Source: an uncultured Bacillales bacterium
Lineage (GTDB): Bacteria; Bacillota_I; Bacilli_A; RF39; UBA660
Length of the DNA stretch: 64,000 bases
NCBI GenBank assembly: GCA_947648915.1
Contig: CANSPQ010000001.1
Location: 12,429 to 76,428 of the forward strand
Reading direction: 5' to 3'
Shown: piece by piece, positions 5,088-51,102 of the stretch
Layout of the letters: every line of letters starts with the position of its first letter
Position numbering within the stretch: position 1 is the stretch's first letter
The notes under the pieces: model-generated
Seen by the model: only the letters and a program-made list of their open reading frames with translations
Told to the model about the DNA's origin: nothing
Databases searched by the model: none
Position numbers and translations under genes: made by a program

Positions 5088-7502
5088 TTACTTTTTTTTA
5101 CATATGATAAAATATAAACTAGATAAAAATATACTGCATATAGAAATAATGAGTCCTATAGGTAATCCTACTGGAATGTAATTTAAAACGATTTGATGTT
5201 TTCCTTTTTCCAATTCTATTCCTAAAAAGGTATCTACAACTTTAGTAGATAAGGTAGGAATTCCATCCACTTTTATATGCCATCCTTTATCATAAGGAAT
5301 AGAAAGAAATAGTATAGAATTATTTTCTAATGTAATTTCTCCATACAATTCATTTTGGTTTATTTGAATATTTTGCAATGTATTTTTTTGTAACACTTTT
5401 ATTTGTTGCTGAAATAATTCTTCATTCAATTGGTAAATCGAAATTCCTTCTACCTGAGTTTTTCCTTTTGGATGAATGGTTAATTCTATTAAATCTTCTA
5501 CCTGAGTTGCTTGAAAGACGCCATGTGCCTCCCACTCTTTCAATTCTTTTCCATTTAAAGTAACTTGTGCAATATCTTGTTGTAAGGTATTGCCTTCTTT
5601 ATAGTGAATCTGTATGTAATAATCTCCAGATGAAACAGGCACTCTATATTCTGTTTCAGTATCTTTGCTCTCATAAATCATTTTGAATACATCTTCATTA
5701 CTACCAGTGAATGCTTTTAATAGATCATTTTGAAAGGTAAAAGCATTCGATTCATTTAAGTTTATTCTATTATGATGTATGAAATAACCAATTGGTAGGC
5801 TATATGGATTTTGATATAAAATGTTATCTTCTGTAATCCAATCAATCGGTTCTAAAATATCATATCCAGTACTTTTTTCTCTCGACGTTATATAAGTTTG
5901 AATTCCAAGTAAAGAATCTATTACGATGGTATTTGTATTCACATCAATGTTTGATACTCCAGTTGTTGGATAACCTGCCTTCTTCATAAAGTGATAAATT
6001 TCTTTGGAATTGGTTGATAAAAAACTTGTGAGTTCTTTTGTATTACAAATCATAGAATCTAATCCGCTATAAGAATCGGCATGCCCTGTTCTATAAATAG
6101 GATCAGAGTTTTGGCAATTAGAAATCATACTTTCTAGTTTGATGTTGTCACTTGCGCCTTGAAAGGTAAGCTCAAAATTCAGTAATATTTCACCAAATGC
6201 AATGATAAAAAATAAAATTGAAAAAATATTTTTTTGATTTCTCCCCCTCTGATATAATAAAATGCTATATAAAAGTAAAAATATACCTGTTATAACAATT
6301 TCCTCAAAACCTAAATATTCATAATTTGAATAAATGAGAATGATACTCATTAATATATATATAATTATAAGTGAAATTATTTGTTTGATAGAAACCTTTA
6401 TCTTAGAATAAGTAGAAGTTGCAACAGCAATAAGAAAAAAGGTAAATAAATAAGAGTTTCGATTCATGAAATAATTAGGCATCGAAAATCCATGCCATAA
6501 ATAAATGAAAAATGGAACAATACAACTTAGTAATATTAGAACAAGAAGAAAAAATGTTCTTTTTTTATTTTTGATATCACTACTTACAAAATAAAAGTAA
6601 ACTAACACAATAGAAAATACACCACAATATAGATTGGTTCCATGCGCATTGAGTACGTTCTTACAATTATGGGCACCTATATAGAGTTTTGCAAGCAATT
6701 CTTTCAAATTGTTAATAATAGAATGAATATCCCACATGTTATTTACCGAATAGCGAAATACACTCTTTAGTTCAATTATGGTAGGAAGTAATAGACACAT
6801 CGTAACCCCTACACCCAAAATGGAACATAAAATAAAATGAAAAGTTGTTTTTGATATTATTTTTTGACCTTTTATATACATTTGAATCAAAAAATAGAAG
6901 AATACAAAAATACAAGTCATATAGCCTGTATAAAAATTACTGAAAATTGTTAACAATAAGAAGCTAAAATACATTCCTTTTTTGCTATATGCAATCAATC
7001 GATCAATTCCCAGTAAAACAAGTGGTAATAGATATACAGCATCTAGCCACATCACATGAAAATAATATTGTACTGTATACCCCATAAGTGCATAGGCTGT
7101 TGAAAATAGATAATTCATCTTGTGATTTTGTGGATAATGTTTTTGTAAATATAAATGCATGGTTCCACCAGATAATCCAATTTTGAAAACAATTAAAATA
7201 AATAAGGCAATTGGAATACTCGTTTTTGAAAAGAAAATTAGAATTATATTGAGTGGGCTTGCTAAGTAATAGGCAAATGTCGCTATCATACTTCCGCCCA
7301 TACCCTTAGAAAAAGAATATAGTATGCTTTCTTTTCCCATAAATACATCTCGTAAATAGGAAAACAAAGAAACATATTGTGCCTTCATATCCGATATCAT
7401 AAAATTTTCGCTTTTTATTGTATATCCTAGTAAGTAATATCCTATTATAAATATAATAATTGGGATACCAAAGGCAATTACAAATTTTTTCATCTCTTTC
7501 AT
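5088..7502 (-). CDS. YfhO-family polytopic membrane glycosyltransferase (GT-C fold) with large C-terminal extracytoplasmic domain
   Basis: 804 aa. About 14 N-terminal TM helices followed by a roughly 330-aa soluble domain. Overall architecture and N-terminal sequence (YLLGYTIKSENFMISDMKAQYVSLFSYLRDVFMGKESILYSFSKGMGG...) are typical of bacterial YfhO proteins. Confidence 0.6.
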   Translation of the reverse strand: MKEMKKFVIAFGIPIIIFIIGYYLLGYTIKSENFMISDMKAQYVSLFSYLRDVFMGKESILYSFSKGMGGSMIATFAYYLASPLNIILIFFSKTSIPIALFILIVFKIGLSGGTMHLYLQKHYPQNHKMNYLFSTAYALMGYTVQYYFHVMWLDAVYLLPLVLLGIDRLIAYSKKGMYFSFLLLTIFSNFYTGYMTCIFVFFYFLIQMYIKGQKIISKTTFHFILCSILGVGVTMCLLLPTIIELKSVFRYSVNNMWDIHSIINNLKELLAKLYIGAHNCKNVLNAHGTNLYCGVFSIVLVYFYFVSSDIKNKKRTFFLLVLILLSCIVPFFIYLWHGFSMPNYFMNRNSYLFTFFLIAVATSTYSKIKVSIKQIISLIIIYILMSIILIYSNYEYLGFEEIVITGIFLLLYSILLYQRGRNQKNIFSILFFIIAFGEILLNFELTFQGASDNIKLESMISNCQNSDPIYRTGHADSYSGLDSMICNTKELTSFLSTNSKEIYHFMKKAGYPTTGVSNIDVNTNTIVIDSLLGIQTYITSREKSTGYDILEPIDWITEDNILYQNPYSLPIGYFIHHNRINLNESNAFTFQNDLLKAFTGSNEDVFKMIYESKDTETEYRVPVSSGDYYIQIHYKEGNTLQQDIAQVTLNGKELKEWEAHGVFQATQVEDLIELTIHPKGKTQVEGISIYQLNEELFQQQIKVLQKNTLQNIQINQNELYGEITLENNSILFLSIPYDKGWHIKVDGIPTLSTKVVDTFLGIELEKGKHQIVLNYIPVGLPIGLIISICSIFLSSLYFIICKKK

Positions 7503-7642
7503 AGCATCACCATATGATTTTATTATAAAGCAAATATATATATTTTAAAACATCTTTTAGTCAATTATTTTAAATCATTTAAATAAAAAATAAGTTTTAA
7601 ACCAAAATAAAAAACAACCTATACTAGCGCTGAATTTAAATA

Positions 7643-8017
7643 CTATACTTCTACTTTTTCTTCTGAAATCTCACAAAGATATTTTTTAAAACTTTCAATA
7701 TATGTTTCAATTTCTTCTGGATCTACGGTTCCAACTTTCATCATTATATGACTATTTGGCAATTGGTATAATACATCAGTTTTCACAATACTATCCTTGT
7801 TTAACCCGTTCTTTTTATTTTTTGGAATAAGAATATTATATTTATATTTTTGCTTTTGAATCTGTGATGAAATCAACATACCAAAATAATCTATTGATAT
7901 TGCTAAATTATTACCTGTTTTTTCGTAATCAATTATTACAAATAAATGATTATTCCCCTTGCTCCCATCAGCATAGTCATATTCGCTTGCAAATACGATA
8001 TCTCCAACGTTATACAT
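7643..8017 (-). CDS. MazF/PemK-family toxin-like protein
   Basis: 124 aa. The blocks VGDIVFASEYDYADGSKGNNHLFVIID, ISSQIQKQKYKYNILIP and NKDSIVKTDVLYQLP align by eye with B. subtilis NdoA/MazF ([61 protein letters not shown]). Confidence 0.5.
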   Translation of the reverse strand: MYNVGDIVFASEYDYADGSKGNNHLFVIIDYEKTGNNLAISIDYFGMLISSQIQKQKYKYNILIPKNKKNGLNKDSIVKTDVLYQLPNSHIMMKVGTVDPEEIETYIESFKKYLCEISEEKVEV

Positions 8018-8037
8018 TTATCATTTTTCATTCCTTT

Positions 8038-8208
8038 CTACTTAGTCTGATATGCTTGTAGTTTTCCTTTGTGTTGCTCATTTTCAACGGGGTATTTTAC
8101 AAAAGCCTCTTTATAAGAACGAACTAAATTTTTACTTTTAGCAAGAGCAATAATTTTCTTAATATCTTGCTTTAAATCACTTTTTAAAGCGTTCTCCTTT
8201 GCTTTCAT
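8038..8208 (-). CDS. Small ORF (56 aa) upstream of MazF-like gene; putative cognate antitoxin
   Basis: Not in the ORF track because it is under 60 aa. ATG at rc(8206-8208) is preceded by GGGAGGAGAA. It encodes MKAKENALKSDLKQDIKKIIALAKSKNLVRSYKEAFVKYPVENEQHKGKLQAYQTK, and its stop lies 21 nt before the toxin start. Confidence 0.4.
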   Translation of the reverse strand: MKAKENALKSDLKQDIKKIIALAKSKNLVRSYKEAFVKYPVENEQHKGKLQAYQTK

Positions 8209-8432
8209 TTTTTTCTCCTCCCTCGTAATTAAAATATATCATAATTTACAGAATTTGTAAATTACTTATGTGTATTCTATACATATTTTAACACATTGTC
8301 AAGATGTTTTAGAATTATGTTATTCTACTAATAATATACTATTATTTTTTACTCATTCCTTTTTTCTAAACAATTTTTTATGATAATTTTTTTGAATTTA
8401 TTATATAGTAAAAAGAAATCTTTCGATTTCTC

Positions 8433-9218
8433 TTAAAAATTCATCATCTGCATCATTGCAAATAATAACAATAACAAGATCCCACCACCAGTTGTAACTA
8501 ACATTGTCATTGTCTTATTTTCCATTGTGTCCAAACGATTTTTATATTTCTGTTCACGTACCTTATTTTGTAATGTAGATACAGTTCTTGCAAATAAAAC
8601 GAGTTGTTCCTGTTTGTTTTCTTGTGATCCTAGTCCAAGACGATATAACAAACGCATCATACGCATGGAGTCTCTAACAGGATATTCTTTTGCAAAATCC
8701 ATATAAGGATTTACGCTAGAATCTCCTGCCTCAATTTTTGTAATCATTTTTTCAAGTCCTGGTTTAAAAATCTCAGGTGCGGTATCAATAGATTTACGAA
8801 TTGCGACTGGTACTGTATAGTGTTGCACTAAGATTTCCAAGCTTTTTAGATAATATGGTAACATTTGATTAATTTTGTTTAAATTTGCCTTATAATACTT
8901 TTGTAAACTTGTATATGGCAACTTAAATACTACAAATCCTAAAATGAATGCAAATAATATATTTACAAAGGAAGGATTAGAAAGCATGAAAATGAATATG
9001 ATAAATACAATTACAACTAAACCATTACGCAAACGTTTTGAAAATTCACGGTTGACATCTACTTCATTTCCATGACGTACCGTTAGTAAAAATTTATAGT
9101 CATCTTCCATTAGGAATCTGAAATATGGTTCTGCATCTGTTAAAAACTTTTGTGTATCAATTTTCTTGTTATACTCTAATACAAATAAAATGATTAGTGC
9201 GATTAAAATAAATTCCAT
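8433..9218 (-). CDS. TadC-like (T2SS-F domain) inner-membrane pilus platform protein
   Basis: 261 aa. An N-terminal TM, an internal TM pair and a C-terminal TM with a cytoplasmic helical domain, which is T2SSF/TadBC topology. Start overlaps the upstream TadB stop (ATGA). Confidence 0.5.
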   Translation of the reverse strand: MEFILIALIILFVLEYNKKIDTQKFLTDAEPYFRFLMEDDYKFLLTVRHGNEVDVNREFSKRLRNGLVVIVFIIFIFMLSNPSFVNILFAFILGFVVFKLPYTSLQKYYKANLNKINQMLPYYLKSLEILVQHYTVPVAIRKSIDTAPEIFKPGLEKMITKIEAGDSSVNPYMDFAKEYPVRDSMRMMRLLYRLGLGSQENKQEQLVLFARTVSTLQNKVREQKYKNRLDTMENKTMTMLVTTGGGILLLLLFAMMQMMNF

Positions 9219-10120
9219 TACTCAGCCCCCACATTCTCATTGTAATATTTCTCACCTGATAATAAGAAATAAGTATTGATAATAATAATTGCGTGCAATA
9301 ATAGTTGAACCAAACCATTGTCTAATAATTTAATATAAGATTCTACCCCTAATAAAAACTGAACTAACATAACCATTAAATATAAAATAACACCAAATTG
9401 TAAAAACTTTTTATGGAATTGTGCTCTGTCCAAACGGTCTCTATAAACATTTTCCACCAACATATCAATATCTAGTGACATGTTTTCTAATGCATCACTT
9501 GAGTTTTTTGAACCCTCATTTGTAATTTGTAAGAATAATTGATGCATATTTTTTACGATAAAATAATCATATTTTTGATTCATAAATTGAATAGATTGTT
9601 CAATCGTACCATTTTCATAAGCAAGATCAATCATTGTTTTGACATCTGATCTTACAGGATCTTCTAATACACCTGATTCATAAACACCTTCTAGTGCTTT
9701 GATAAAGGATTGTGTTGTTGCAAATTCCATAATGGTATTGGTAGTATATACTTGAACTTGTTCAAAGATAAATTCACTGTAAATTCTTTTACATCTTAGA
9801 TAAGTAAGGTAAGGAATCGTAATAACAGCAACTACCGCATACACAACTGATAATAATAAATTATAGAAATATAAATATGAAATTACAGCTGCCGCAACGG
9901 CAAATATGATCACTTGTAATGTATATTGTTTTTTGGTATATTCCTGTCCGAGCTCTTTTACTTTTTCTCTTACTTCTTTAAAAGAATAAGGAGCATACTT
10001 ATCATAAACATTTCCTACTTGTTTTGATACATATTTATAGACATTTGTTCCTGCACTATTTCGGTAAGCAAGAATAAATATAATTACAAAAGCAATTAGG
10101 ATAAATACGAATATTTCCAT
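9218..10120 (-). CDS. TadB-like (T2SS-F domain) inner-membrane pilus platform protein
   Basis: 300 aa. N-terminal TM, a roughly 110-aa cytoplasmic domain and C-terminal TMs. Lies directly downstream of the CpaF/TadA ATPase. Confidence 0.5.
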   Translation of the reverse strand: MEIFVFILIAFVIIFILAYRNSAGTNVYKYVSKQVGNVYDKYAPYSFKEVREKVKELGQEYTKKQYTLQVIIFAVAAAVISYLYFYNLLLSVVYAVVAVITIPYLTYLRCKRIYSEFIFEQVQVYTTNTIMEFATTQSFIKALEGVYESGVLEDPVRSDVKTMIDLAYENGTIEQSIQFMNQKYDYFIVKNMHQLFLQITNEGSKNSSDALENMSLDIDMLVENVYRDRLDRAQFHKKFLQFGVILYLMVMLVQFLLGVESYIKLLDNGLVQLLLHAIIIINTYFLLSGEKYYNENVGAE

Positions 10121-10133
10121 TTAAATACCTCCT

Positions 10134-11252
10134 TTATTCATATGAAATATTTTGATTTGTGGTTACTTGTTGTTGATTGTTCACATTATTTTGTGAAGTT
10201 GCTTGTATTACATTAGGTGATAAAATAACACCTTGTGAATCTAGGTAATCAAGTAAATATTTAGAAGGTTGATTTCTAATAACTTTACCTGATGTTGATT
10301 TTTGATAAATTGTATTATATTTCGCTTCATTGTTCTCTGTTACATAGAATTCTGTTACTTCGGCAATTTCACGGACAAAACGTTTGGTTTCTTTATCTTG
10401 ATATCCACGAATATACACGCCTATTTGGATATAACGGTAAATTGTTTTTAAGAATTGGTCAATATCCTGACTTGTCTCTAACAAGCTGTACATACGATGT
10501 GGAATAGAAGAGGCTTTATCCGCATGGATTGTAGATAAAATGTAGTGTCCTGACGAAATAGAGTTACGAACTGCCATTACTGCTTCTGCACTACGTACTT
10601 CGGATAATAATATCCACTTTGGATTTTGTCTCATACAAGTTACCAATACATCTGTATATGAAGCTATATTATTGGTTTTCATCGCAACGATATCACGATG
10701 TGGAAAAATTCGGTCTAAATGAAGTTCTAGTGTATCTTCCACTGTAATGATCTTCTCATTTTCTCTCGTATGAGAAGCTAAGTATTTAATAAATTCGGTC
10801 TTACCTGAACCAGTTTCCCCACATACAATAATATTGCAATGTCCTAAAACACACTGTACTAGAAAATCATGGATATCTAAATCAACGTATTTGTCTTGTA
10901 ACAATTTGTCTTTCTCAAGTCTTATTTTGGCTGGAGTTTTACGAATTACACAAGCAATTCCATTACGAGCAATGGACTCATGAATGAAATTGAGACGTAA
11001 TTCGGCACCCTCTGCATCCAAGAAGGGATGTGCCATATTGAATGACTTTCCCATTACATTGGAACATTGAAATGCTAATTTTTCCATTAATGCATCATTA
11101 ATATCTGGATTTTCAACACGAAAATTTCCTTTGGATAATGTTTTTAAATGAATTTGTCCACCATTACTGTAGGAAATATCAGTAATGTCATCATCCTCTA
11201 AATAAGGTTTGATAGGCCCAAAATCAATTTGGGAGAACATATTATCATTCAT
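10134..11252 (-). CDS. CpaF/TadA-family secretion ATPase (GspE/VirB11 superfamily)
   Basis: 372 aa. Walker A is VCGETGSGKTEF. The Asp/Glu box plus His box, ILLSEVRSAEA...GHYILSTIHA, matches the (V/I)GE(V/I)RgaEA...GHxGxxxTxHA signature of T2/T4 secretion ATPases. Confidence 0.7.
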   Translation of the reverse strand: MNDNMFSQIDFGPIKPYLEDDDITDISYSNGGQIHLKTLSKGNFRVENPDINDALMEKLAFQCSNVMGKSFNMAHPFLDAEGAELRLNFIHESIARNGIACVIRKTPAKIRLEKDKLLQDKYVDLDIHDFLVQCVLGHCNIIVCGETGSGKTEFIKYLASHTRENEKIITVEDTLELHLDRIFPHRDIVAMKTNNIASYTDVLVTCMRQNPKWILLSEVRSAEAVMAVRNSISSGHYILSTIHADKASSIPHRMYSLLETSQDIDQFLKTIYRYIQIGVYIRGYQDKETKRFVREIAEVTEFYVTENNEAKYNTIYQKSTSGKVIRNQPSKYLLDYLDSQGVILSPNVIQATSQNNVNNQQQVTTNQNISYE

Positions 11253-11255
11253 ATA

Positions 11256-12065
11256 TTAACCTTCTACTTGCCCCATTGCTGCAGTTAATTCATCATTTGG
11301 AACAGTATTAGCATTGATAAAGTCTCTTAAAGTTTGTGAACTTACCATAGTGCTTCCCTCTGGTACTACCGCAGTTCCACCATGTGGTACTGGGAATAAT
11401 TCAGCTGAGAAAGCAGTCATGTATTTTCCTTTTAATAACAATACGTTAATTTCTGGTTGTACTCCAAAGATTAAACTACTTGGTGTACGAGCTTCATCGC
11501 TATTTTCAAATACATTTCTTCCTGCAGAATCTTTTACAGCTAATACTTTTACGTTTTCTACTAATTTACCAACCATAAGCTGTCCATTTTCATTTACAGC
11601 TTTCATGTAAATATCAATGTAATTTCCAGGAAAAATTGAATTTCCATAAGTTTTATCCATTGTAACAGCCATATTGTAAGGAACTTCTCCATCGGCTACT
11701 TCAACAAATGCGGAATCTGGTAAATCAGCTTCATTTACTACAACTCCACTATAGAACATACTTCCTTTTGGAATTACAGTATTGTAGTTGCTATATTTAC
11801 CAATCACAAATGCGGATGAACGAATTACGTTACTCTGCAATACAACTGGTGCTACATCGACATATTCAATCATGTCAGATGTAATTCTTGTTCTTGGTTG
11901 AATGGTCTGTGCTGCTACTGGTATTCTTTTAACTGGGTTTACCATTCTGTTAATTTGGATACGATATCCAAAGAATAAGACTAAGATAATCGCGATTACT
12001 CCAATAATCGTAACTGTGTTTTTGTTTCTAAAAAATCTTTTTAATGCAATCATAAAATTATTCAT
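11256..12065 (-). CDS. CpaB/RcpC-like Flp pilus assembly protein (N-terminal TM + SAF-like domain)
   Basis: 269 aa. TM is VTIIGVIAIILVLFFGY. This is followed by IPVAAQTIQPRTRITSDMIEYVDVAPVV, typical of the SAF/CpaB fold. Immediately upstream of tadA. Confidence 0.5.
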   Translation of the reverse strand: MNNFMIALKRFFRNKNTVTIIGVIAIILVLFFGYRIQINRMVNPVKRIPVAAQTIQPRTRITSDMIEYVDVAPVVLQSNVIRSSAFVIGKYSNYNTVIPKGSMFYSGVVVNEADLPDSAFVEVADGEVPYNMAVTMDKTYGNSIFPGNYIDIYMKAVNENGQLMVGKLVENVKVLAVKDSAGRNVFENSDEARTPSSLIFGVQPEINVLLLKGKYMTAFSAELFPVPHGGTAVVPEGSTMVSSQTLRDFINANTVPNDELTAAMGQVEG

Positions 12066-12081
12066 ATTTTTCTTCCTTTCT

Positions 12082-12483
12082 TTAATATGGTGTTTCTAAA
12101 ATCGCATCCAACCGATTGGAAATATCAAAATCGATAATTTCTTCTGTTACATTGGACTGTAATTTAGTGGAAACCCTCAAACTTACTTTTGGAGGTGTTT
12201 CGTTCACATCATATATTTCAACTTTATAAGTATTTCCTATGGTTACACTTTCTGCGAACCTCCTTATAAAGTTTTCAACAAATTTTTCACGATCGATACG
12301 AACAGTACCGGTTCTACGATAAGAGGCTAAGTCAACAGCGTCGTACATAGCCGCTTCTGTAATTTCTTTTAATAGGATATAGTTTTGTTCATCTGTATTG
12401 GTGACATTCTGGAAAAAGAAGATAAAAGCAACTGATGTGACACCGAGTAAGATAACAAATATACCCCAAAACGATTCTTTCAC
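12082..12483 (-). CDS. Small N-terminally anchored protein, pseudopilin/TadG-like candidate
   Basis: 133 aa. Begins MKESFWGIFVILLGVTSVAFIFFF, and the same MKES start is used by the 3925..4347 pseudopilin. Has a single TM and then a soluble domain. Confidence 0.4.
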   Translation of the reverse strand: MKESFWGIFVILLGVTSVAFIFFFQNVTNTDEQNYILLKEITEAAMYDAVDLASYRRTGTVRIDREKFVENFIRRFAESVTIGNTYKVEIYDVNETPPKVSLRVSTKLQSNVTEEIIDFDISNRLDAILETPY

Positions 12484-12495
12484 TTCTTTTCACCT

Positions 12496-15400
12496 CTATC
12501 TTTCTGAACATGCATAGAAATCACTATGTGATGAACTACTGCATACACTTTTATCCGTTTGAAGACCATATAATGGTTCTCTTATAAAATTACTTAAGCA
12601 AGCTACACCATCTTTACAAACTAATGTAAAATCTGCATAGCCATCATCACGAGAATCATTATACCTACGTATTTCTTTAATGGTATTGGTATCTAATATA
12701 AAGGTATAAAGTGGATCTTTCTGATAAACGGCGTTACCCTCTACACCACGGTTTTTTAATATTTGGGTTTCTACTAATTTTACACTATTCCAGTTTGATC
12801 CTGGATATCTTCCTATATGTGGATCTAGACTAAACTTATTGGTAGTATTACTTACCCCTGAGCCAGCTGTTTTCCCTGGGAATGGATTTCTAAGTGAAAT
12901 AGTTCTATAAATGATGTTAATTCCACCATAAGGACAAACAGTATCCTGACAAATTTTAACTGCCTCATCTTTCGAATATCCTGAACTCATATAACTAAAT
13001 ACACAAGGTTTAATATTCATTCCATCATTATATGTTCCATGTGGACAATGGAAATCCTCATTTATATTACATAAAGTACTCACACAATAATCGTAGGTTT
13101 TTCCGTTATTCAAGCAAGAGGTAATTTTAATCGTTCTATCATTTGGACAAAACTTATCATCTTCACATACTTCGTCAAAGGTCTCGTCACTATCACAATA
13201 TAGAATTTGAGCATCAGCACACGTAATCGTTGTAGAACTACTATTAGATCCATATATCTTACAATATAAATCTTTTCCAGCATGTTTTGTTCCCTCTGGG
13301 CAAACACACTCATCAGTAGGTGCATTTGTTACAGAATAATTACATACATATGGGTTTTGATTCGCAAGTTCTGTAAATTTTCCATCTTGGCCTAAACTAT
13401 CTACAATAATATTTAAATCATATGGTTCTTTTACATTTGCCGTAGAAGATATTGGTAAATTACTATATCCAATTTTAATATAGTCAACAGTTGGGATACT
13501 CATTGATGGTTTATTTGTTCTTTTCTCTACATAATGATATAAATTGTCTGGTAAAGAATAGGTTGCGGTTGCTGTAATTGTAATTGGTCTTTCATCAATT
13601 AATCGTACTATTTCTAGATATTTATCCATTAAACCTCCACGCAACGGCAGATCAGAAATTGTATAAGTTTTTAAAACATCTGAATGTTGACGTACATACT
13701 CTGTTGCGTCACATCCCTCACATCCAAAACTCTGACCTGACAACTTTAGTTGATGGGTTGTTCCATATTCTGGATCATTATATGACATAGATGTATCACT
13801 TTCAAAAGAATATAAGTCAGATGGATCCCATTTTGTTTTTCCTGCATATACAATATTGTTTAAAAATTCGGTTGCCCCATTATATGCATTAATATAGTTT
13901 TTACAAACATTAATTTTAGCATTAATAGCATTTAATTCGTTCTGCTTTTTATTCACCAATGCTTCACGTTGACTTTTTTCATTATTAGTACACGTAGATG
14001 TTATTGTTGTGACATTATTAGGTGGATTGTTTCTATCACAATCATTTAGACAGCTGTTGTACTCATCACCTCCATTATGAGGAGTATCAGCACACTCTCT
14101 TTTACAACTGTTTCTTTTATCATAGTTTTGATCTACTGTATTGGTTACTGTTGTACATTTATCTAACTCAGCTCTTGCTTCTTCTAATTCTCTCTGGCTT
14201 TTTAATTGTTGATCTCCATATGCACGATCTCCAATAAATGCGCAAGCATCTTCGGTTGCAAGTCCTTTGCTATCTATTTTTCCTCTTGCTGCAACCGTTC
14301 TTCTTATATTTTCAAGTTCTCCAACATAATTAATACCATTAACTGTTTGGTTTATGTTATTTATATGTGCTTGAAATGTTGTGTTCATATCTTCTTGAGA
14401 CATTGTATTTGGTGAAAATTTAATTTTACAAGTTTTAATTCCCTCATAACTTAAAGAATATAAATTTCCCCAAATAGTATTTAATGTTGCAGTAGATGTT
14501 GGCCATACAATGTGTGTTCCAACAGGTACTGGGTTAGCAATGCCCCCAGGATAATATTGATATGCTTCCTCTTTGCAGTATAACCATGCAACACTTCCGT
14601 CTCCAATCATTCTTGTGGGTTCTCCGTCCTCACTCGCGTTGCCACACTCGCTTCCATCTAATTCTTGCCAATAATGTCCAACGTGTGTTTGATTATCATT
14701 TGCACAAACTGCAGGTGTTCCTATAGTTTTTAATACACCACCTCTACAAACAGGAGCTGGTGGCTCAGAGCAAAAATGTTCTTTACATGCTTCTTCATCC
14801 ATATTGCCACAATCTGATAAGTAGTGCGCATTTCCATTATTATCTGTACAAACATAATCATTAGAATCATCAGGACAATACTGAGCTGCACACTCAACAC
14901 GACATTCCGTCATTTTACTTGGGTTTCCATTCATACAACTAGTGACACAACTTGTAATATCGACATTCTGCATGGTTGGATCTGTGCATGTTATATTTTG
15001 CGGACAATACAAACTTTTACAATAATTTTCTTCCTTGCCACTATTCACACAAGAAGTAATATCATGCGATACATTATTTACATCTGTACAAGTCTTTTTT
15101 TCTGTACAAGGATCACCAGTAATAATTGTTAAAAAGCGTTGATAGTATCCTCCATTTTTATGATGATAAAAATAAAGATTTCCCATATACATTGTTCCTA
15201 TATTTAATATTTCTTCAAAGTCATCTATAGCTTCTTTTGTTAAATTTTGACTTTTATCATTACTATAATGTCTAACTCCAACATAATAACTCATCAATGC
15301 ATTTGACGCATTTCCTTCAAATAAAGTTTTATCAAAACCTGACATTCCATCTGCTCTTAGCCAAAAATATACTTGAGTGACTAGATATTTTACCTGTCCT

Positions 15401-15723
15401 ATTTCACTACCTAAATTCGCATTTAATATATATTGAACGGCTCTTCTATCTCTATTATTTATTATTATTAACGGTAATTGATTATTATTTCTATAATATG
15501 CATTTTCCGTTGGGTCGACACTATATCCTGGGTTTAAACATAATGCTACAGCAGAACTCTTACTATCTGATATTTTTTCAATGTACAGAGTTTTTTTACT
15601 ATTTTTATAACTAAACTCTATTTGCGTCTTTCTAGGCTCTAGTGTCGCACAAAAATCTTCTGCCCCTACATTCACTGTAAACACTGCTAAAAAGATAGTA
15701 AATGCTATTAATATTTTTTTCAT
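12496..15723 (-). CDS. Giant (1075 aa) Cys-rich secreted protein; candidate pilus-associated adhesin
   Basis: Signal peptide MKKILIAFTIFLAVFTVNVGAEDF. Extremely Cys-dense central region (residues ~200-380: ...CPQNITCTDPTMQNVDITSCVTSCMNG...CRVECAAQYCPDD...). A coiled-coil-like segment follows. No LPXTG motif and no C-terminal TM. Uninterrupted 3.2-kb ORF. Confidence 0.55.
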   Translation of the reverse strand: MKKILIAFTIFLAVFTVNVGAEDFCATLEPRKTQIEFSYKNSKKTLYIEKISDSKSSAVALCLNPGYSVDPTENAYYRNNNQLPLIIINNRDRRAVQYILNANLGSEIGQVKYLVTQVYFWLRADGMSGFDKTLFEGNASNALMSYYVGVRHYSNDKSQNLTKEAIDDFEEILNIGTMYMGNLYFYHHKNGGYYQRFLTIITGDPCTEKKTCTDVNNVSHDITSCVNSGKEENYCKSLYCPQNITCTDPTMQNVDITSCVTSCMNGNPSKMTECRVECAAQYCPDDSNDYVCTDNNGNAHYLSDCGNMDEEACKEHFCSEPPAPVCRGGVLKTIGTPAVCANDNQTHVGHYWQELDGSECGNASEDGEPTRMIGDGSVAWLYCKEEAYQYYPGGIANPVPVGTHIVWPTSTATLNTIWGNLYSLSYEGIKTCKIKFSPNTMSQEDMNTTFQAHINNINQTVNGINYVGELENIRRTVAARGKIDSKGLATEDACAFIGDRAYGDQQLKSQRELEEARAELDKCTTVTNTVDQNYDKRNSCKRECADTPHNGGDEYNSCLNDCDRNNPPNNVTTITSTCTNNEKSQREALVNKKQNELNAINAKINVCKNYINAYNGATEFLNNIVYAGKTKWDPSDLYSFESDTSMSYNDPEYGTTHQLKLSGQSFGCEGCDATEYVRQHSDVLKTYTISDLPLRGGLMDKYLEIVRLIDERPITITATATYSLPDNLYHYVEKRTNKPSMSIPTVDYIKIGYSNLPISSTANVKEPYDLNIIVDSLGQDGKFTELANQNPYVCNYSVTNAPTDECVCPEGTKHAGKDLYCKIYGSNSSSTTITCADAQILYCDSDETFDEVCEDDKFCPNDRTIKITSCLNNGKTYDYCVSTLCNINEDFHCPHGTYNDGMNIKPCVFSYMSSGYSKDEAVKICQDTVCPYGGINIIYRTISLRNPFPGKTAGSGVSNTTNKFSLDPHIGRYPGSNWNSVKLVETQILKNRGVEGNAVYQKDPLYTFILDTNTIKEIRRYNDSRDDGYADFTLVCKDGVACLSNFIREPLYGLQTDKSVCSSSSHSDFYACSER

Positions 15724-15734
15724 TTGTACACCCC

Positions 15735-16379
15735 CTAAAATAGGCTACTTTTTTTATTATATCTATAAATTATAATAATTCCACCTACAATAAATATTGG
15801 TAAAACAATATAATAATAATCCAAATAGAATTCCAATATATAATCATATATTCCTTTAATATTCTCTTCTTCTTTTTTTTCAATTGGCTTTTCTTCTACT
15901 ACTTTTAAACTATTTACTTTTTCTTTAAATTCATTATAGGAAAGTGTCATATTTGTAAATTTCTGACACAATTCATTTTCTTCCATCCCGATACATACCT
16001 CATCTTGATAAAATGGATTGTATGGTGGAGTTGTTACATAATGAGAATATAATAACTGATTACTACAATAAATATCATTTGTATAAACATCAAATCGATA
16101 ACTTGTATTTGATCTTAAATTATAAATTGTAATCTCATTACCTTGATAATTATAGGTTTTATTATTCTTAATATCTTTTATGATAAAACCCTCTGGAATA
16201 TTGGATAGCGTAATTTGAAATGAAATGCGTCCATTTTCTTCGGTATAAGTATAACTAGATGTAATATTACTCGCTAATGTTTGATATTTTACTTTATCCT
16301 CATTGGAGCAAATAATTGCCTTTGTTTGAAACGGCAATAGTAAAATAAATAACCCTAAAAGAATTGGCAGTCGTTTCAT
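15735..16379 (-). CDS. Secreted protein with signal peptide and C-terminal TM anchor (214 aa)
   Basis: MKRLPILLGLFILLLPFQTKA signal. C-terminal YIVLPIFIVGGIIIIYRYNKK anchor. Several N-x-S/T sites. Confidence 0.5.
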   Translation of the reverse strand: MKRLPILLGLFILLLPFQTKAIICSNEDKVKYQTLASNITSSYTYTEENGRISFQITLSNIPEGFIIKDIKNNKTYNYQGNEITIYNLRSNTSYRFDVYTNDIYCSNQLLYSHYVTTPPYNPFYQDEVCIGMEENELCQKFTNMTLSYNEFKEKVNSLKVVEEKPIEKKEEENIKGIYDYILEFYLDYYYIVLPIFIVGGIIIIYRYNKKSSLF

Positions 16380-16451
16380 CCTATCTATCCTCTCTTTCTT
16401 ATTATAACATGAATTCCTTAATCTACAAGTGATTATTCAATATTTTTGACA

Positions 16452-18035
16452 TTATTTTACAACAATTTGGTAAATATACTCACGAAATGTGAAAGAAATT
16501 GTAATATGTTCTGCATATTCTAGTTCTTTTGGAACTTCAATGTAATAGACATTTTCCTCGGTCTGTCTATTTGGTTTTACCTGTTTCAAATTATGTATCG
16601 TTTTTTCTTCCCCATTTATTTCATACGTAATCATTCCAAAATCTTTGATTACACTATATAAATCAGATAATTTATGAATATAAGAATTTTCATCTAATGT
16701 AAAATTTCCAACTATTTTCATTAATGTTTTATCATAATTATCACTCATACTTGGTTTAATGTACTCTACTCCTGTTAAACAATTATTAGCTGTAATACAA
16801 TAAATGTAATTATTGATAAAAGTATCCCCTATTTCATAAGAAGCTATCTTGACTTTACTCTTTTTTAAAATACTTTGTGTAAGTGATATCTCTCTACCTA
16901 ATAAATAAGAAGTAGTGGTTTTTGTTGAATCATCAATTGGTGTAATCAATGTTTCAATTACTTTATCATTTTTATCTTGATATTTTAAAATTATTTTTTC
17001 TGTATTCAATTCTTTTGGTAATTCATAGACTAGTATATATGGTTCAAATGTAGTTGTCATATATTCATTATGATAAATATTTCCAAGATCATACATTACT
17101 TCTTTGTAATTATCACTTGCATGAAAAGAAGTATTTCCAATCATTAAAGTAAAACGAGATGGATTAAATACTTTTTTATTTACCTGATAATTCGAACGAA
17201 TTTGATATTGAATCACCAAAAACTTTTTATCCTTTTTAATCTCTTCATTATGATAACTTTTGCTTGTAAGATAACTATTTTCTATATTTATCATAAACTC
17301 GGTTGTCGTAAATGCTTCATTCTGTTTATATATTTTATGATATACTCCTACATTTAAATAAATAACTGCACAAATAACAGCAATAACAAGTAAGGCAATC
17401 ATATGGATCATAAACTTATTTTCTATATATACATATTTCGCATGTCTTAATTTTTTACGTAAATTTCTTTTTAACTGATCCGTATCTAATTCTACGTCTA
17501 TTTCAAATTCTTCATTATCTTCAGATGCGATTTTCAAATCTTCTAAATCTTGGTCAAAATCAAATTTCTTAATATTAAATCCTGTTGCACGCATCGCAAC
17601 TACAATTAAACTTAATGATTGTACGATTAATGCGAATAGGCAAAGATCTTGCATTATTTTTAGAGTTCTTATACTTAGTAATCCTGATTCTAATGTTTTG
17701 ATATTGGTATAACAAAATATAAATACAAATGCCATAAAACTATAAACGAATATATTGAATACATAAAAGCGAATTGGCTTTTTTTTGAAACTCATTAGTC
17801 CCAAAATAATAAATGTTAAAATAAGTACACCAATAATAACAATTATCATAATAGGTGAAAATAAATTAGATGTAATGTTGGTTCCAATGGTAGATAAATT
17901 TGAACTCATATATTCGCTAATGAATCTGAAAATCGTATTGGTTTTGAGCAATAAATATACAATCATAATTGTTAAGGTAAAATGAATTACTTTGAAATAC
18001 TTAATTAAAAATGCAAATGGTTTTCTAAATAACAT
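16452..18035 (-). CDS. Membrane protein: ~6 N-terminal TM helices + large extracytoplasmic C-terminal domain (first gene of right Tad sub-operon)
   Basis: ORF track 16452..18170. The more likely start is the ATG at rc(18033-18035) (MLFRKPFAFLIKYF...), which is preceded by AGGAAGGTGGA. 528 aa. Confidence 0.5.
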   Translation of the reverse strand: MLFRKPFAFLIKYFKVIHFTLTIMIVYLLLKTNTIFRFISEYMSSNLSTIGTNITSNLFSPIMIIVIIGVLILTFIILGLMSFKKKPIRFYVFNIFVYSFMAFVFIFCYTNIKTLESGLLSIRTLKIMQDLCLFALIVQSLSLIVVAMRATGFNIKKFDFDQDLEDLKIASEDNEEFEIDVELDTDQLKRNLRKKLRHAKYVYIENKFMIHMIALLVIAVICAVIYLNVGVYHKIYKQNEAFTTTEFMINIENSYLTSKSYHNEEIKKDKKFLVIQYQIRSNYQVNKKVFNPSRFTLMIGNTSFHASDNYKEVMYDLGNIYHNEYMTTTFEPYILVYELPKELNTEKIILKYQDKNDKVIETLITPIDDSTKTTTSYLLGREISLTQSILKKSKVKIASYEIGDTFINNYIYCITANNCLTGVEYIKPSMSDNYDKTLMKIVGNFTLDENSYIHKLSDLYSVIKDFGMITYEINGEEKTIHNLKQVKPNRQTEENVYYIEVPKELEYAEHITISFTFREYIYQIVVK

Positions 18036-18467
18036 AATCCACCTTCCTATTCTAATATATAGTATATCGTAAAACAGATTAAAAAAAAAGTATTTTTTAA
18101 AAGTACAATTTATTTTATTATAGACAATCATAAACATTTTTCTTACCCATTTTATGTAAATAAATGCCAATTTTTGAATTAAGGGATGAAAATATTAATG
18201 CTTTTATACTTTCAATGAACAAAAATGCCGAAAAACATAATTTTGTTTAGTACATAAAACAAAATTGCTAGCAAATGAAAAAATAGCATAGATTATTCTG
18301 ATAGTATGTGAAGGATATTTATCTAAAATTAGATTATTCTATGATTGAGACATAATGAGAGTTATAAGGATTAGAAAAATATACAATAAATCTGATTGTA
18401 GGCATAGTACATAATATGTTATACTTAATATGTAAAAGTATACATTTAGAAAAAGGTGGCATAAAAT

Positions 18468-19445
18468 ATGGAATTTAATTTGCAAGAGGCAAAGGAAAAG
18501 ACAATTGAATTTTTAAATCAAAAATCATATTCTTTGGTACGTCCTGATTTTTCTAAATATTCCCAAGTTTATTTATTTACAACTGAAAATTTATCATATA
18601 TAGATAAATTAGATATCCAAAATAAAGATATTTTAACTGTTACAGGTAGTTTTGATCAATGTTTAAATCTTGCTTACAAAGGTTGTAAATCTGTATGCAA
18701 TTTTGATGTAAATGTTTTAACAGTTGCATTTGCAGCATTTAAGTACGCAGCGCTTAAAGCATTTACATATAAAGAATATTTAGAATTTTTATCTGGCAAT
18801 AATCGTTTAGATTACCATATGTATTTGAGAATAAAACCTTATATGAATTTTATATTTCAAGAATACTGGGATTTTATATATCAAACATTTGATTATTCTG
18901 GAACCTCTATTTTTGCCTCCAGATTGTTTGATACTCCTAAAACAATAGAACAAATAATTTCCTTGAATCCCTATTTAAGAAATGAAAATAATTATAATAC
19001 TACTAAACAGAGGATAGATTCTGTTGCAATTAAATTTGAAGAAAAAAATGTATTGGAAATTGGGCAATCAGATGAATTGTATGATATAATGCTATTTTCT
19101 AATCTTGAAACTTATTTGTTAGATGAACTTTCAGGTGGAATGACCCCCGAAGAATACATAAATTTTCTTCATAATAACGCTAGTAATCAATTAAAAGAAA
19201 ATGGTATAATTCAAATTGCATATCAATATCAATATAGAACAAAGGTAAACTTGACAGGAAATTTTTTAAAAAATTTATTTCATAAAAAATATAAGGTTAA
19301 AGGAATTGATTATTTAGAGAAAAAATATCGAAAGATAATTATTACAGGAAGTCCCTTATGGAGTAACACAGAAATAACAAGTGACGTTCAAGATTGTATT
19401 TATTTATATAAAAATGAACTAGAGAAACGAAGAAATGTTTTATAA
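18468..19445 (+). CDS. DUF3419/BtaA-like putative SAM-dependent transferase
   Basis: 325 aa. DILTVTGSFDQCLNLAYKGCKSVCNFDVNVLTVAFAAFKYAALKAFTYKEYLEFL resembles the DUF3419 core (d.vLsItSaGcNaL..l...p..v.avDlN..Q.all.LK.aa...l.yeeF). Recognised by memory only. Confidence 0.4.
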   Translation: MEFNLQEAKEKTIEFLNQKSYSLVRPDFSKYSQVYLFTTENLSYIDKLDIQNKDILTVTGSFDQCLNLAYKGCKSVCNFDVNVLTVAFAAFKYAALKAFTYKEYLEFLSGNNRLDYHMYLRIKPYMNFIFQEYWDFIYQTFDYSGTSIFASRLFDTPKTIEQIISLNPYLRNENNYNTTKQRIDSVAIKFEEKNVLEIGQSDELYDIMLFSNLETYLLDELSGGMTPEEYINFLHNNASNQLKENGIIQIAYQYQYRTKVNLTGNFLKNLFHKKYKVKGIDYLEKKYRKIIITGSPLWSNTEITSDVQDCIYLYKNELEKRRNVL

Positions 19446-19572
19446 AATGGAAAATCTTTTTAGACAAATATTTTTATACGGAATTATGGAACAAAACACT
19501 TTGTAATTTGTGATTAAGTATATTTTTAATTTTCTGAAAAATTGATAACTATATTAGATGGGAGTGAATCAA

Positions 19573-20325
19573 ATGAAAAATATTAGTCATTATGTTTTTG
19601 GAATTATAGGAGGTTTAATTGGTGGAATAATTGCTTCAATTCCATGGATATTACTCTATATCTATGGAAATATGATGTTTTCTTTACTTGCTGTTTTTAT
19701 TGCGATGGGTGCACTCATTGGATATAGATTATTTAAAGGAAAAGTAGATAAAAAGTTACCACTGATTATTACAATATTATCTCTTATTTCCGTTTCAATT
19801 GTTACACTTGTTATTATTCCGTTATTACTTCTTTCTAAAAATGATTTAGTTGTAAGTTTCGAAAATCTAGAGTGGTTATACCAAAATTCTGAATTTGCAA
19901 GTGCGATAATGCGGGATTATATCATATCCTTAGTTTTTACACTTCTTGGAATTAGCGGTGTTACTTCACAACTGAAAAGAGGAGAAGATCCAAAGCTTTT
20001 TCCTCAAAATAATGCATTACGACAAGAAGCTTCAGAACAGACTTCTAATATAAAAGAATCCTTCCAACAATTAGATGCAATGTCAAAAGAAAATGCAGTA
20101 CCAAAAGAGAGTATTCTAAATGCATTATCAGGAGAAGAAAATTCATCTGCTACATTTCGTACTCTATGTACACAAAAAATAATCCGTAAATATAAAAAGA
20201 ACTACTACTTTGACGAAAAATCAGAGCGTAGTGTCCTTCGCAGATTTTTACTCATTTATTTTGGTATTATGAAATGGATTATCCTTATATTTATTATTCT
20301 ACTAATTCCGATTCTATTTTTATAG
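19573..20325 (+). CDS. Integral membrane protein (4 TM) with acidic/polar C-terminal half
   Basis: ORF 19558..20325. The likely start, MKNISHYVFGIIGG at 19573, follows GGGAG. Overlaps the 3' end of the convergent rluA-family gene by 6 nt. Confidence 0.5.
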   Translation: MKNISHYVFGIIGGLIGGIIASIPWILLYIYGNMMFSLLAVFIAMGALIGYRLFKGKVDKKLPLIITILSLISVSIVTLVIIPLLLLSKNDLVVSFENLEWLYQNSEFASAIMRDYIISLVFTLLGISGVTSQLKRGEDPKLFPQNNALRQEASEQTSNIKESFQQLDAMSKENAVPKESILNALSGEENSSATFRTLCTQKIIRKYKKNYYFDEKSERSVLRRFLLIYFGIMKWIILIFIILLIPILFL

Positions 20326-21323: not shown

Positions 21324-22175
21324 TTAAACTATAACTGGTGTAACAATTTCACCAATTACTTTAATTGCTTTTATTGTATCTTCAAATGATATTTCTTTTG
21401 CGTATTCGTAGTTGCTCTGATAATTATTCCATAATATTTTTAATCTTGAATCATTATTAATCAGTTCTATATATTCACTATAATTATCTATATAATCCAT
21501 CGTTTCACGATTCTTAGCAGTATTTAAAATTGCATTTTTTAAAATATGTTTGTTAATGTCACTCCATTTAAAATTAACAAACATATATAAGTCATAATAA
21601 TCTTTCATTCTAGTATTATCAATATTTCTACTAATTATTGCCTCAAACTTTTCTGCAATAATTGTTTCGTAGTTATAAGTCATAATATTAATGTTTTCAT
21701 TATCAAATAATGTACTATATTTAAATTCTACTTCTTTATAAGTGATAACGTCCCCAGTAGTTATATCAATCATTAAGTTCGTTTTCAAACCATCAAATTC
21801 AGCTTTTAAATTAGCATTAAAACCAGAATATAATTCTTCTTCTCTAATATCTTTAATATTTTCTATTTCAAGTTTGATATTATCTTCTATATCTATATTA
21901 ATAATCTCATTAAGAACTTCAGTAATAGTTTCTCTAGAGAGTGATAAGCCTTTTATAGTAGTATCTAAATCCATAGTACTTCTTAAATTTACTCCAAAGA
22001 TAGACGATAATAAAAGTCCACCTTTAATTATAAATTTATCCTTATATTTAGACTTCGAAATTCTTTTTAATAATGATTCAAACATAAAGTTTTGAATCAA
22101 ATATTTATTGGGTATATTAGTTTTATTAGATAAGTTAGATATTTTTGCTTTTAAACTGTCTCTGTTCTTAATCAT
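21324..22175 (-). CDS. AbiEii/AbiGii-family nucleotidyltransferase toxin (type IV TA / abortive infection)
   Basis: 283 aa. N-terminus ...NKYLIQNFMFESLLKRISKSKYKDKFIIKGGLLLSSIFGVNLRSTMDLD is the characteristic DUF1814/AbiEii start (..ErfLyRls.s.y.d.fvLKGG..L). 4-nt overlap with the upstream AbiEi gene. Confidence 0.6.
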   Translation of the reverse strand: MIKNRDSLKAKISNLSNKTNIPNKYLIQNFMFESLLKRISKSKYKDKFIIKGGLLLSSIFGVNLRSTMDLDTTIKGLSLSRETITEVLNEIINIDIEDNIKLEIENIKDIREEELYSGFNANLKAEFDGLKTNLMIDITTGDVITYKEVEFKYSTLFDNENINIMTYNYETIIAEKFEAIISRNIDNTRMKDYYDLYMFVNFKWSDINKHILKNAILNTAKNRETMDYIDNYSEYIELINNDSRLKILWNNYQSNYEYAKEISFEDTIKAIKVIGEIVTPVIV

Positions 22176-22759
22176 TTAAGCACCTCAAAAGTGTCTCTTA
22201 CTTTATTGTAAATGTTCATCTTTTTAGCATATTCATATAATTTTAATGTGTTTTTCTTTTTACTATAAAAATATTCTCTAATGGCTTTATTAAAAATTTC
22301 GAGGTCTATTTTCTTTTTATTTTTAATAATATCGCAAATAGTTTTATCTAAATCATATATTTTTATAATATTACCAGAATCTAATTTATAGTTAATTACT
22401 CCTAAATTTAACAATTCATTCTTTGTATAAAACAGATTAACATTTTCTTCTTTTTGAAGCGAACCTTTATATCCACTTTTAATGGAAATATCATATTTGA
22501 TAGGAATTCTATTAGAAAATCCGTGTAAGTAAAGGGCTGTTGTATTAGAATAGATTGCATATTTACTTTTACTTTGTAGAATCACAAATTCATCAATCAA
22601 AACATTCTTTTTAATATAAACTCCACGACATACTCTTTCTATTTTATTCTTCTTAATAAGTTTAGTAAGGTAAGTTCTAGGAATATTATGTTCAGTAACA
22701 TCTTTAGTAATCAAATAACCATTTTTAAATAAATTTAAGATTTTATTTTCATATTTCAT
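22172..22759 (-). CDS. AbiEi-like antitoxin / transcriptional regulator
   Basis: 195 aa, immediately upstream of and overlapping the AbiEii-like gene. Size and position fit the AbiEi partner. Its sequence similarity is weaker than its context. Confidence 0.45.
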   Translation of the reverse strand: MKYENKILNLFKNGYLITKDVTEHNIPRTYLTKLIKKNKIERVCRGVYIKKNVLIDEFVILQSKSKYAIYSNTTALYLHGFSNRIPIKYDISIKSGYKGSLQKEENVNLFYTKNELLNLGVINYKLDSGNIIKIYDLDKTICDIIKNKKKIDLEIFNKAIREYFYSKKKNTLKLYEYAKKMNIYNKVRDTFEVLK

Positions 22760-47640: not shown

Positions 47641-47641
47641 A

Positions 47642-50063: not shown

Positions 50064-50142
50064 CTAATGGTATTATACGATAATTCGCTTGTTTAGTAAA
50101 GAAAAGTACAATAGGAAAGTAACACTTTACAGAAAAAAGAAT

Positions 50143-50994: not shown

Positions 50995-51102
50995 GTTTTC
51001 TCCTTTCCTTGATTCACCTTTTTACTCTTCTACTAATAACATAGTCCATAACTTTTATAAATCCTTTTTCAATTCAAAAAACTGTAGATTTTTTTCCACA
51101 GT

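Follow-up and report, generated by a model that had tools for sequence, protein, structure and literature searches.

Within a 64,000-nucleotide stretch of DNA from an uncultured Bacillales bacterium (assembly GCA_947648915.1, contig CANSPQ010000001.1; hereafter the window), the minus-strand gene at 12496-15723 encodes a 1,075-residue protein that is probably a modular, thioester-headed adhesin and a fixed part of a 21-gene locus combining a pilus-like module with a type IV secretion system (T4SS). The gene proved genuine and conserved, and a thioester domain (TED) could be recognised as its head; what sets it apart from known TED adhesins are its body, a new candidate docking module and its genomic surroundings. 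To our knowledge, thioester domains are the only known means by which bacteria bind their targets covalently, and nearly all of those described are found on sortase-anchored proteins of cultured pathogens.

The head comprises aa 22-205 (15109-15660; this and all further coordinates within the locus are on the minus strand). A preliminary description, made from the sequence alone, had recognised no domain in the protein, a view now superseded since the N-terminal 185 residues are a thioester domain by both fold and motifs. The model of the N-terminal domain, which has a predicted local distance difference test score (pLDDT) of 90.2, shows the β-barrel and helical bundle of the TED fold. Its top structural matches are SaTIE (10.4), SfbI (9.8), FNE (9.4) and CpTIE (9.4), followed by Cpa (8.9), PnTIE (8.8), BaTIE (8.6) and EfmTIE86 (8.5), and below these TEDs the match list contains unrelated helical proteins. 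The same top structures were recovered with the full-length adhesin model. At the sequence level, searching the family profile against PDB sequences returned one match, the SaTIE TED (6fx6, E 0.0023), with ALCLD placed on AFCIE and AQxAxW on TQMLIW.

TEDs are defined by three motifs, the first of which, [YFL]C(hydrophobic)(hydrophilic), carries the Cys of the bond, while the second, TQXX(hydrophobic)W, lies on helix α2 adjacent to the bond (Miller, Banfield, Schwarz-Linek, PMC6194298). The third and weak motif, (hydrophobic)Q(hydrophilic)(hydrophobic)(hydrophobic), is located near the last strand and carries the bond Gln (PMC6194298). The window head contains all three in the published order, as ALC62LN, TQ117VYFW121 and YQ195RFL. 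The predicted thioester Cys, Cys62 of A-L-C-L-N (codon 15538-15540), is invariant in 31 TED-type members and corresponds to the Cys of SaTIE AFCIE in the alignment. Q117-V-Y-F-W121 (15361-15375), which aligns with SaTIE TQMLIW, falls within the second model helix (aa 107-124); both Q117 and W121 are invariant, and most members have AQ rather than TQ at the start of the motif. The predicted thioester Gln, Gln195 of Y-Q-R-F-L (codon 15139-15141), is likewise invariant and is located just before the last β-strand of the model. Indeed, C62, Q117, W121 and Q195 are the sole invariant residues among the 31 heads, which share just 13-39% pairwise identity with the window head, except for P0001 (97%). 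Q117 was also considered as the bond-forming Gln and rejected, as the published definition assigns it to the accessory TQXXW motif and places the bond Gln C-terminal to it, at Q195 (PMC6194298). By analogy with the characterised domains, Cys62 and Gln195 probably form a putative internal thioester. The predicted bond would be attacked by an amine on a surface molecule of the target, and the bacterium would thereby become covalently tethered. Because only 20 residues separate the end of the last helix (aa 175) from Q195, the head lacks the ~75-residue β-sandwich insert of Class II TEDs and, as modelled, it is Class I-like in size. The head thus represents a divergent TED clade that is missed by Pfam.

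The gene itself is a single unbroken open reading frame (ORF), found in the ORF list and its translation at exactly 12496-15723, with an ATG start codon, a GGGGG ribosome-binding site upstream and a stop codon at 12496-12498. Its product begins with a standard Sec signal peptide, MKKILIAFTIFLAVFTVNVGA/EDF (aa 1-21, 15661-15723), read from the sequence with a predicted cleavage site, and the signal peptide of the homolog P0002 is identical to it although the domain that follows has been replaced. Beyond the signal peptide no hydrophobic segment is present in the adhesin, the maximal 19-residue Kyte-Doolittle mean being 0.9. An LPXTG-like motif was found in the last 80 aa of the adhesin homolog in none of 44 related loci, and no sortase-like ORF was found in the window. 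The preliminary description was therefore right in noting an uninterrupted reading frame, a signal peptide and the lack of a sortase motif or transmembrane (TM) anchor. The gene product would be a Sec-exported modular adhesin of ~115 kDa that dispenses with sortase anchoring.

Behind the head, the protein is rich in Cys, and its domain boundaries were drawn from the full-length AlphaFold2 (AF2) model (pLDDT 73.6) together with the conservation profile. The adhesin contains 51 Cys (4.7%), of which 19 lie in a module at aa 206-383 and 15 in a second module at aa 794-930; at most 12 occur in any 100 residues, and the earlier count of more than 40 within about 200 residues was in error. A pattern search revealed a repeated 4-Cys unit, C-x12-C-x7-18-C-x4-C, in both modules, with copies at aa 212, 246, 292, 859 and 893. 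The first three copies make up a variable Cys-rich insert, aa 206-325 (14749-15108), that shares 33% identity (E 6e-5) with its conserved paralog at aa 818-896. Few homologs have this insert, as alignment occupancy is just 6-49% over most of its length (aa 226-325). The following region, aa 326-793 (13345-14748), consists of two β domains (aa 326-440 and aa 636-793) separated by a long helical hairpin region with Cys staples (aa 441-635); stalk domains of the CnaB-type isopeptide or ester Ig-like kinds were not found in the adhesin. The models suggest that this Cys-rich and helical body acts as a stalk, which behind the head would comprise the 4-Cys units, the two β domains and the long helical hairpin.

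The C-terminal part of the protein is the most strongly conserved. In the conserved Cys-rich module, aa 794-930 (12934-13344), which was delimited by conservation analysis and contains the 4-Cys units at aa 859 and 893, 10 of the 15 Cys are invariant and 3 more are nearly so. The final module, aa 931-1075 (12499-12933), has the highest identity of the family, 42-74% per 25-aa block, and harbors the motifs IIYRTISLxNPFPG, GRYPGxNWN, PLY and IRxYN in addition to four invariant Cys. It is also the sole part common to most of the 1185 cluster representatives described below. No Pfam or PDB match was found for aa 931-1075, AF2 did not fold it (pLDDT 34-50), and Pfam, NCBIfam and PHROGs scans of the single adhesin protein gave no matches. 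A second word-index search, with the C-terminal alignment, yielded 12 matches, mostly short fragments, and no names or domains. A variable distal head, a conserved C-terminus and the lack of both a wall and a membrane anchor are what an adhesin docking by its C-terminus would show, and the C-terminal ~280 aa, of which aa 931-1075 is the proposed docking module, would serve to attach the adhesin to the apparatus encoded by the locus. The docking partner could be one of the pilin-like proteins (DUF5411, p149, p140 or the 60-aa pilin) or the membrane-anchored proteins encoded upstream. Non-pilin type IV pilus tip adhesins of the PilY1/PilC type, which dock on minor pilins by a C-terminal β-propeller, resemble this arrangement solely in that a conserved C-terminus carries a variable head; neither in sequence nor in fold was a similarity to that β-propeller found, the C-terminal module of the adhesin being unmodelled and without matches.

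The protein had been described as an orphan, which is incorrect. By word-index search, 35 homologs of 880-1150 aa were recovered, all of them unnamed and lacking a Pfam domain. The exhaustive profile search gave 1185 cluster representatives at E<=1e-3 (296 at E<=1e-30), and scanning one genome per GTDB species revealed 40 loci with the adhesin. Their sources are nearly all gut or rumen metagenome-assembled genomes (MAGs) bearing the labels uncultured Bacilli, Bacillales, Tenericutes, Firmicutes CAG:822 or Ca. Coprosoma. The closest relative, CAMUMB010000005.1, matches the window co-linearly over 23 kb, with a nucleotide identity of 96%. The reading frame is intact in 41 of the 41 relatives in which its 5' end is present; a fusion artefact interrupted in relatives is thus not indicated, and the adhesin idea stands on this count.

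The adhesin is more divergent than several other proteins of its locus. Across genera it is 27-47% identical to the window protein, compared with 73-90% for the TadA-like protein, 69-98% for the 300-aa protein and 53-90% for the DUF5411 protein. Against the nearest relative, its ratio of nonsynonymous to synonymous substitution rates (dN/dS) is 0.32, versus 0.00-0.07 for the DUF5411, CpaB, ATPase, membrane-protein and pilin genes, and dS varies from 0 to 0.53 along the adhesin gene, a recombination mosaic. In P0002, the part from aa 324 onwards is ~93% identical to the window adhesin, whereas the TED belongs to another allele in which all three motifs are kept (AIAFCLD, ALAQVVIW and TNQRFV). 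A hidden Markov model (HMM) of the head detected a TED head in 64 of 154 full-length representatives (~42%) and in 19 of 41 species genomes, and the order of the TED motifs is kept in 79 of its 86 matches. In about half of the family the TED is replaced by other N-terminal heads, some of which end in ...GYGMNIVDLTD and which belong to no Pfam family; such non-TED heads are present in loci L001, L002, L015, L019, L023, L028, L030, L032-L039 and L041-L044. A Pfam scan of 48 representatives with N-termini outside the best profile match, a set in which a few members still carry a TED-like head, found nothing. The head is under diversifying pressure and swapped as a cassette between strains, which would retarget binding.

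The genomic setting of the adhesin is fixed. With tblastn of the window operon proteins, the gene order was the same in 43 of 44 loci, the 44th being cut by a contig end, and ran TM572, SP214, adhesin, DUF5411, CpaB-like, ATPase, the 300-aa and 261-aa membrane proteins, YfhO (in few loci), a small pilin-like gene, p149, p140 and p335. No homologs were found outside this locus type and, given the synteny, the co-occurrence of adhesin and machine leaves the adhesin idea unrefuted. The adhesin gene is separated from its neighbours by gaps of 11 and 12 nt, compared with 3-16 nt within the locus, and no minus-strand terminator-like site is present in 11800-18700; thus, the genes look co-transcribed. 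A promoter scan performed at chance level (47 sites found, 48 expected). Directly upstream in every case is SP214 (15735-16379), a 214-aa protein with a signal peptide, a C-terminal TM anchor and no significant Pfam match, and the conserved block starts with TM572 (16452-18170), a 572-aa polytopic membrane protein that lacks a Pfam match and whose TTG start may be over-extended. Downstream of the adhesin lies the gene for the 133-aa DUF5411 protein (12082-12483; PF17424, E 5e-54), pseudopilin-like with an N-terminal hydrophobic segment and 53-100% identical over the loci. These two neighbours agree with the preliminary description, which had placed the gene between a pseudopilin-like gene and a secreted anchored protein; its label of a Tad operon is only partly supported.

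Further downstream are a CpaB/RcpC-like gene (11256-12065), which matches PF16976 marginally (29.2 bits against a cut-off of 28.8) and TIGR03177 below its cut-off (E 1.3e-8), and the gene for a T2SSE-family ATPase (10134-11252; PF00437, E 2e-27). Among NCBIfam models, the ATPase scores 110.6 bits with VirB11 (cut-off 250) and 88.5 bits with the TadA-family model, all below cut-off. The two polytopic membrane proteins that follow (300 aa, 9218-10120; 261 aa, 8433-9218) resemble TadB and TadC only in position and size: neither Pfam nor PDB profile searches revealed T2SSF similarity, hhalign detected no paralogy between the two, and their identification as TadB and TadC failed in PDB profile searches and hhalign. 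The same searches led us to drop a "ParA"/TadZ identity for p335 (2899-3906), a cytoplasmic protein of 335 aa with no family match. The 60-aa pilin-like gene (4829-5011; MKEVTGEANMTVVTIILIGVIVAIA...) gave a weak match to Pilin_N (E 0.0099), an archaeal family, and this candidate pilin, MKEVTG/EANMTVV..., contains neither the Flp motif G/XXXXEY nor the type IVa motif G/FTLxE. This ORF ends in a C-x11-C pair and is 100% identical in the related loci L005 and L045. The conserved order continues with p149 and p140 (4359-4808 and 3925-4347), genes for proteins of 140-149 aa with N-terminal hydrophobic segments. A TadV prepilin peptidase was not found among the scanned operon products.

Two further elements lie among these genes in the window. 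A MazF/PemK-type toxin gene (7643-8208, PF02452, E 5e-9) lies inside the operon together with a 56-aa upstream ORF, a possible antitoxin, and positions 7589-8227 alone fail to align with L005, a relative that is otherwise 96% identical. A YfhO-family membrane protein (5088-7502, PF09586, E 3e-154) is inserted where the machine genes give way to the pilin-like gene, and just three of the related loci (L003, L005 and L032) were found to have it there; as speculation, it might glycosylate the pilin or the adhesin.

The locus then extends into a T4SS. This half starts in the window at 1-2843 with a 130-aa protein, a 337-aa protein and a TrbL/VirB6-like gene, the last of which (1-1316) runs off the window start; the 130-aa and 337-aa proteins have weak T4SS_pilin/VirB2-like C-termini. 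A metagenome contig, L045, has the same gene order and a TrbL-like protein 93% identical to that of the window, and its positions 8488-19679 continue with a 106-aa protein, a 183-aa protein, a VirB4-like ATPase, a SpoIID+CHAP wall hydrolase, a 209-aa protein and VirD4. The coupling protein VirD4 matches PF02534 with E 7e-57; the VirB4-like protein is an AAA_10/TraG P-loop protein, and a TrbL_4 match (E 1e-5) falls just below cut-off. A VirB4, a VirD4, a VirB6/TrbL-like protein and a wall hydrolase in one locus identify a Gram-positive-type T4SS. This half was missed in the preliminary description, which saw a Tad operon; since the locus extends into a conjugation-type T4SS, its likely biological role changes. 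The 337-aa protein (1334-2347) combines a signal peptide and a Cys-rich ectodomain with a VirB2-like TM hairpin at its C-terminus. Its identity to the L005 counterpart is just 27%, although the neighbours of that counterpart are 98-100% identical to those in the window; in L045 the value is 94%. These comparisons suggest that the locus encodes another surface protein that is hypervariable and swapped between alleles.

The two halves together form a co-linear 21-gene chromosomal locus, in which a Gram-positive-type T4SS is joined to a Tad-like module of ATPase, CpaB and pilin genes. The flanks of the locus are housekeeping genes, TrmA-like upstream and rhodanese and RmuC downstream. A search of PLSDB plasmids with the adhesin by tblastn gave no match, and no phage homologs were found. 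The idea that the locus is a mobile element was rejected on the basis of these flanks, the 96% co-linearity over 23 kb and the lack of plasmid or phage matches. We tentatively propose that the locus encodes a hybrid machine of spore-forming uncultured gut Bacilli, chromosomally fixed and vertically inherited, that might latch covalently onto partner cells by means of the exchangeable thioester head. It is conceivable, though we hold this part too with little confidence, that the Tad-like filament module and the T4SS, alongside which no relaxase is seen, act together to move DNA or proteins. The adhesin most likely makes or stabilises the contact with the cell or surface on which the apparatus acts, which parallels the part played by TIEpLS20 in pLS20 conjugation.

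Several observations weigh against this interpretation of the adhesin. The window protein has no match to the Pfam TED model (PF08341), the best result being one of 35 members at E 0.03, so that TED membership, with the Pfam gathering threshold not reached, rests on structure and motifs; in addition, a Foldseek search of the whole model against the PDB found nothing. Formation of the thioester bond is something we infer, and since TED heads occur in only the fractions of representatives and genomes given above, the function of the family is not thioester-dependent as such. For the proposed docking module, the model stays at pLDDT <50, and it is without known relatives. Within ~4 kb downstream of VirD4, in loci L049 and L066, where rhodanese and RmuC follow, no relaxase or integrase is present. 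Finally, the "Tad" identity of the machine is weak, because the ATPase scores best against VirB11, the CpaB match is marginal, the two membrane proteins and p335 match no T2SSF or ParA family, and neither a Flp motif nor a prepilin peptidase was found in the operon.

An alternative, which we regard as possible but doubtful, is that the protein is a host-directed adhesin at the tip of a Tad-like pilus and functions independently of the T4SS, with the TED binding a host or mucus protein as in Cpa and SfbI. The TED fold and motifs are as expected for such a protein, and Cpa is a pilus-presented TED adhesin (2xi9; PMC8092201); moreover, nearly all source genomes are gut or rumen MAGs, pilin-like genes and DUF5411 adjoin the adhesin gene, and head swapping fits host or immune pressure. 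However, the adhesin has no pilin-like N-terminus and no known route into a type IV fibre, and support for the module being a pilus is weak in its own right. Wherever the available sequence is long enough, the T4SS genes follow the Tad-like genes co-linearly; because there is no exception to this, the two halves appear to form one functional unit. The suggestion of a pilus-tip adhesin in the preliminary description holds in its adhesin part, the TED fold and its three motifs being those of Cpa, SfbI and TIEpLS20, whereas the location at a pilus tip would be an extrapolation.

It is unlikely that the protein is instead a structural component of an envelope-spanning apparatus, namely an oligomeric stalk or conduit that crosses the thick cell wall, is built from the β-hairpin-β body and has the head as a secondary feature, since its adaptor-like structure matches do not surpass those to designed proteins or generic helical hairpins, the invariance of the TED residues and the cassette exchange of heads indicate a functional, exposed binding domain, and its dN/dS is an order of magnitude above that of the DUF5411, CpaB, ATPase, membrane-protein and pilin genes. 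It is very improbable that the machine releases the protein, or that it is released alongside the machine, as a free effector or toxin, a role which the preliminary description had entertained as an effector delivered by the Tad machine: a signal peptide is present and an anchor absent, but searches of Pfam, NCBIfam, PHROGs and the PDB revealed no domain of an enzyme or toxin, the architecture of head, stalk-like body and conserved C-terminus is of the adhesin type, and export by its own Sec signal peptide makes Tad-like or T4SS delivery unnecessary.

Among characterised proteins, the thioester-headed adhesin proposed here is most usefully compared with TIEpLS20, the product of gene 34 of the Bacillus subtilis plasmid pLS20, a TED adhesin without a sortase signal that is encoded in the pLS20 T4SS operon and is needed for mating in liquid (PMC8092201). 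A C68S mutant of TIEpLS20 is conjugation-defective, and attachment is presumed to be a function of the C-terminal ~250 aa of the protein (PMC8092201). The two proteins share a signal peptide, a TED head, a stalk and a C-terminal region (~250 aa in TIEpLS20), have no LPXTG, lipobox or known wall-binding module and are encoded within Gram-positive T4SS operons; contact with a partner cell is the role proposed for TIEpLS20, as for the present adhesin. In contrast, TIEpLS20 is plasmid-borne, with a Class II TED containing the β-sandwich insert and three structural putative Cna stalk domains, whereas the adhesin described here is chromosomal, lacks the ~75-residue insert, has a stalk of 4-Cys units and a helical hairpin and is accompanied by a Tad-like module. 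The Class I TED/TIE proteins (SfbI, 5a0l; CpTIE, 5a0g; PnTIE, 5a0n; FNE, 5dcq) are LPXTG-anchored and have isopeptide or ester stalks, neither of which is present here, and the adhesin head is 13-16% identical to their TEDs, without reaching the threshold of the Pfam TED model. Cpa/Spy0125 of Streptococcus pyogenes (2xi9) is joined covalently to a sortase-assembled pilus; the present adhesin has no sortase signal and, unlike in the case of Cpa, the machine next to it is of the type IV filament and T4SS kind.

In the R64 shufflon, the C-terminus of PilV is switched by site-specific inversion. PilV adhesins of the IncI conjugative type IV pili of R64 and TP114 are reported to be variable and to decide which partner cells are contacted (PMC9045228). 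These pili are the Gram-negative functional analogue: the logic is alike, with a type IV-pilus-like module beside a T4SS, and the exchange of head cassettes observed here is reminiscent of PilV switching. PilV is, however, a minor pilin with a prepilin N-terminus, while the present adhesin is a non-pilin that varies by allelic recombination and that would bind covalently. The DUF5411 protein has been noted once before, in a predicted pilus- or secretion-like operon of gut Clostridia (PMC9523054). Those operons, from Roseburia, Ruminococcus and Eubacterium, encode a CpaF/T2SSE ATPase, DUF5411 and a large adhesin-like protein (PMC9523054). They also contain a PilC/GspF platform and an internalin-B-like protein, whereas no T2SSF or leucine-rich-repeat similarity is detectable here, and a T4SS half was not reported for them. 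A literature search for a Tad+T4SS hybrid or a link between TEDs and Tad systems found nothing.

Outside the locus, the window contains a GerA/GerAC/spore-permease germination operon (24480-28203, plus strand) and a D-Ala-D-Ala carboxypeptidase gene (33927-35018, minus strand). Because of these genes, the organism is a walled spore-former and not a cell of the wall-less "Tenericutes" type, in spite of the labels of some MAGs. On the minus strand are also an AbiEii toxin/AbiEi antitoxin pair just upstream of the locus (21324-22759) and a surface-polysaccharide cluster (46702-57993) with several glycosyltransferases of the GT2, GT4 and GT28 families and an O-antigen-ligase-like protein. A stand-alone 490-aa protein (39500-40972, minus strand) starts like a canonical type IV prepilin (MKKKGFTLVELLAVIVIL; PF07963, E 2e-7), followed by a ~460-aa C-terminal module with no family match, and is a modular pilin unrelated to the adhesin locus. 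A Fic/DOC protein is encoded at 62487-63167.

Collectively, these findings place a divergent TED clade at the head of a non-sortase protein that is obligatory to a pilus-like and T4SS locus in widespread uncultured gut Bacilli. They make testable how a Gram-positive machine holds a non-pilin adhesin by way of a conserved C-terminal module, what role is played by chromosomally fixed T4SSs that have no relaxase alongside, and how head-cassette exchange retargets binding. The TED heads, being small and confidently modelled, are in addition candidates for covalent "catcher"-type protein tools. If the proposal of a hybrid machine is true, that machine would be a new class of contact-dependent exchange system, and the C-terminal module of its adhesin a new pilus- or machine-docking domain.

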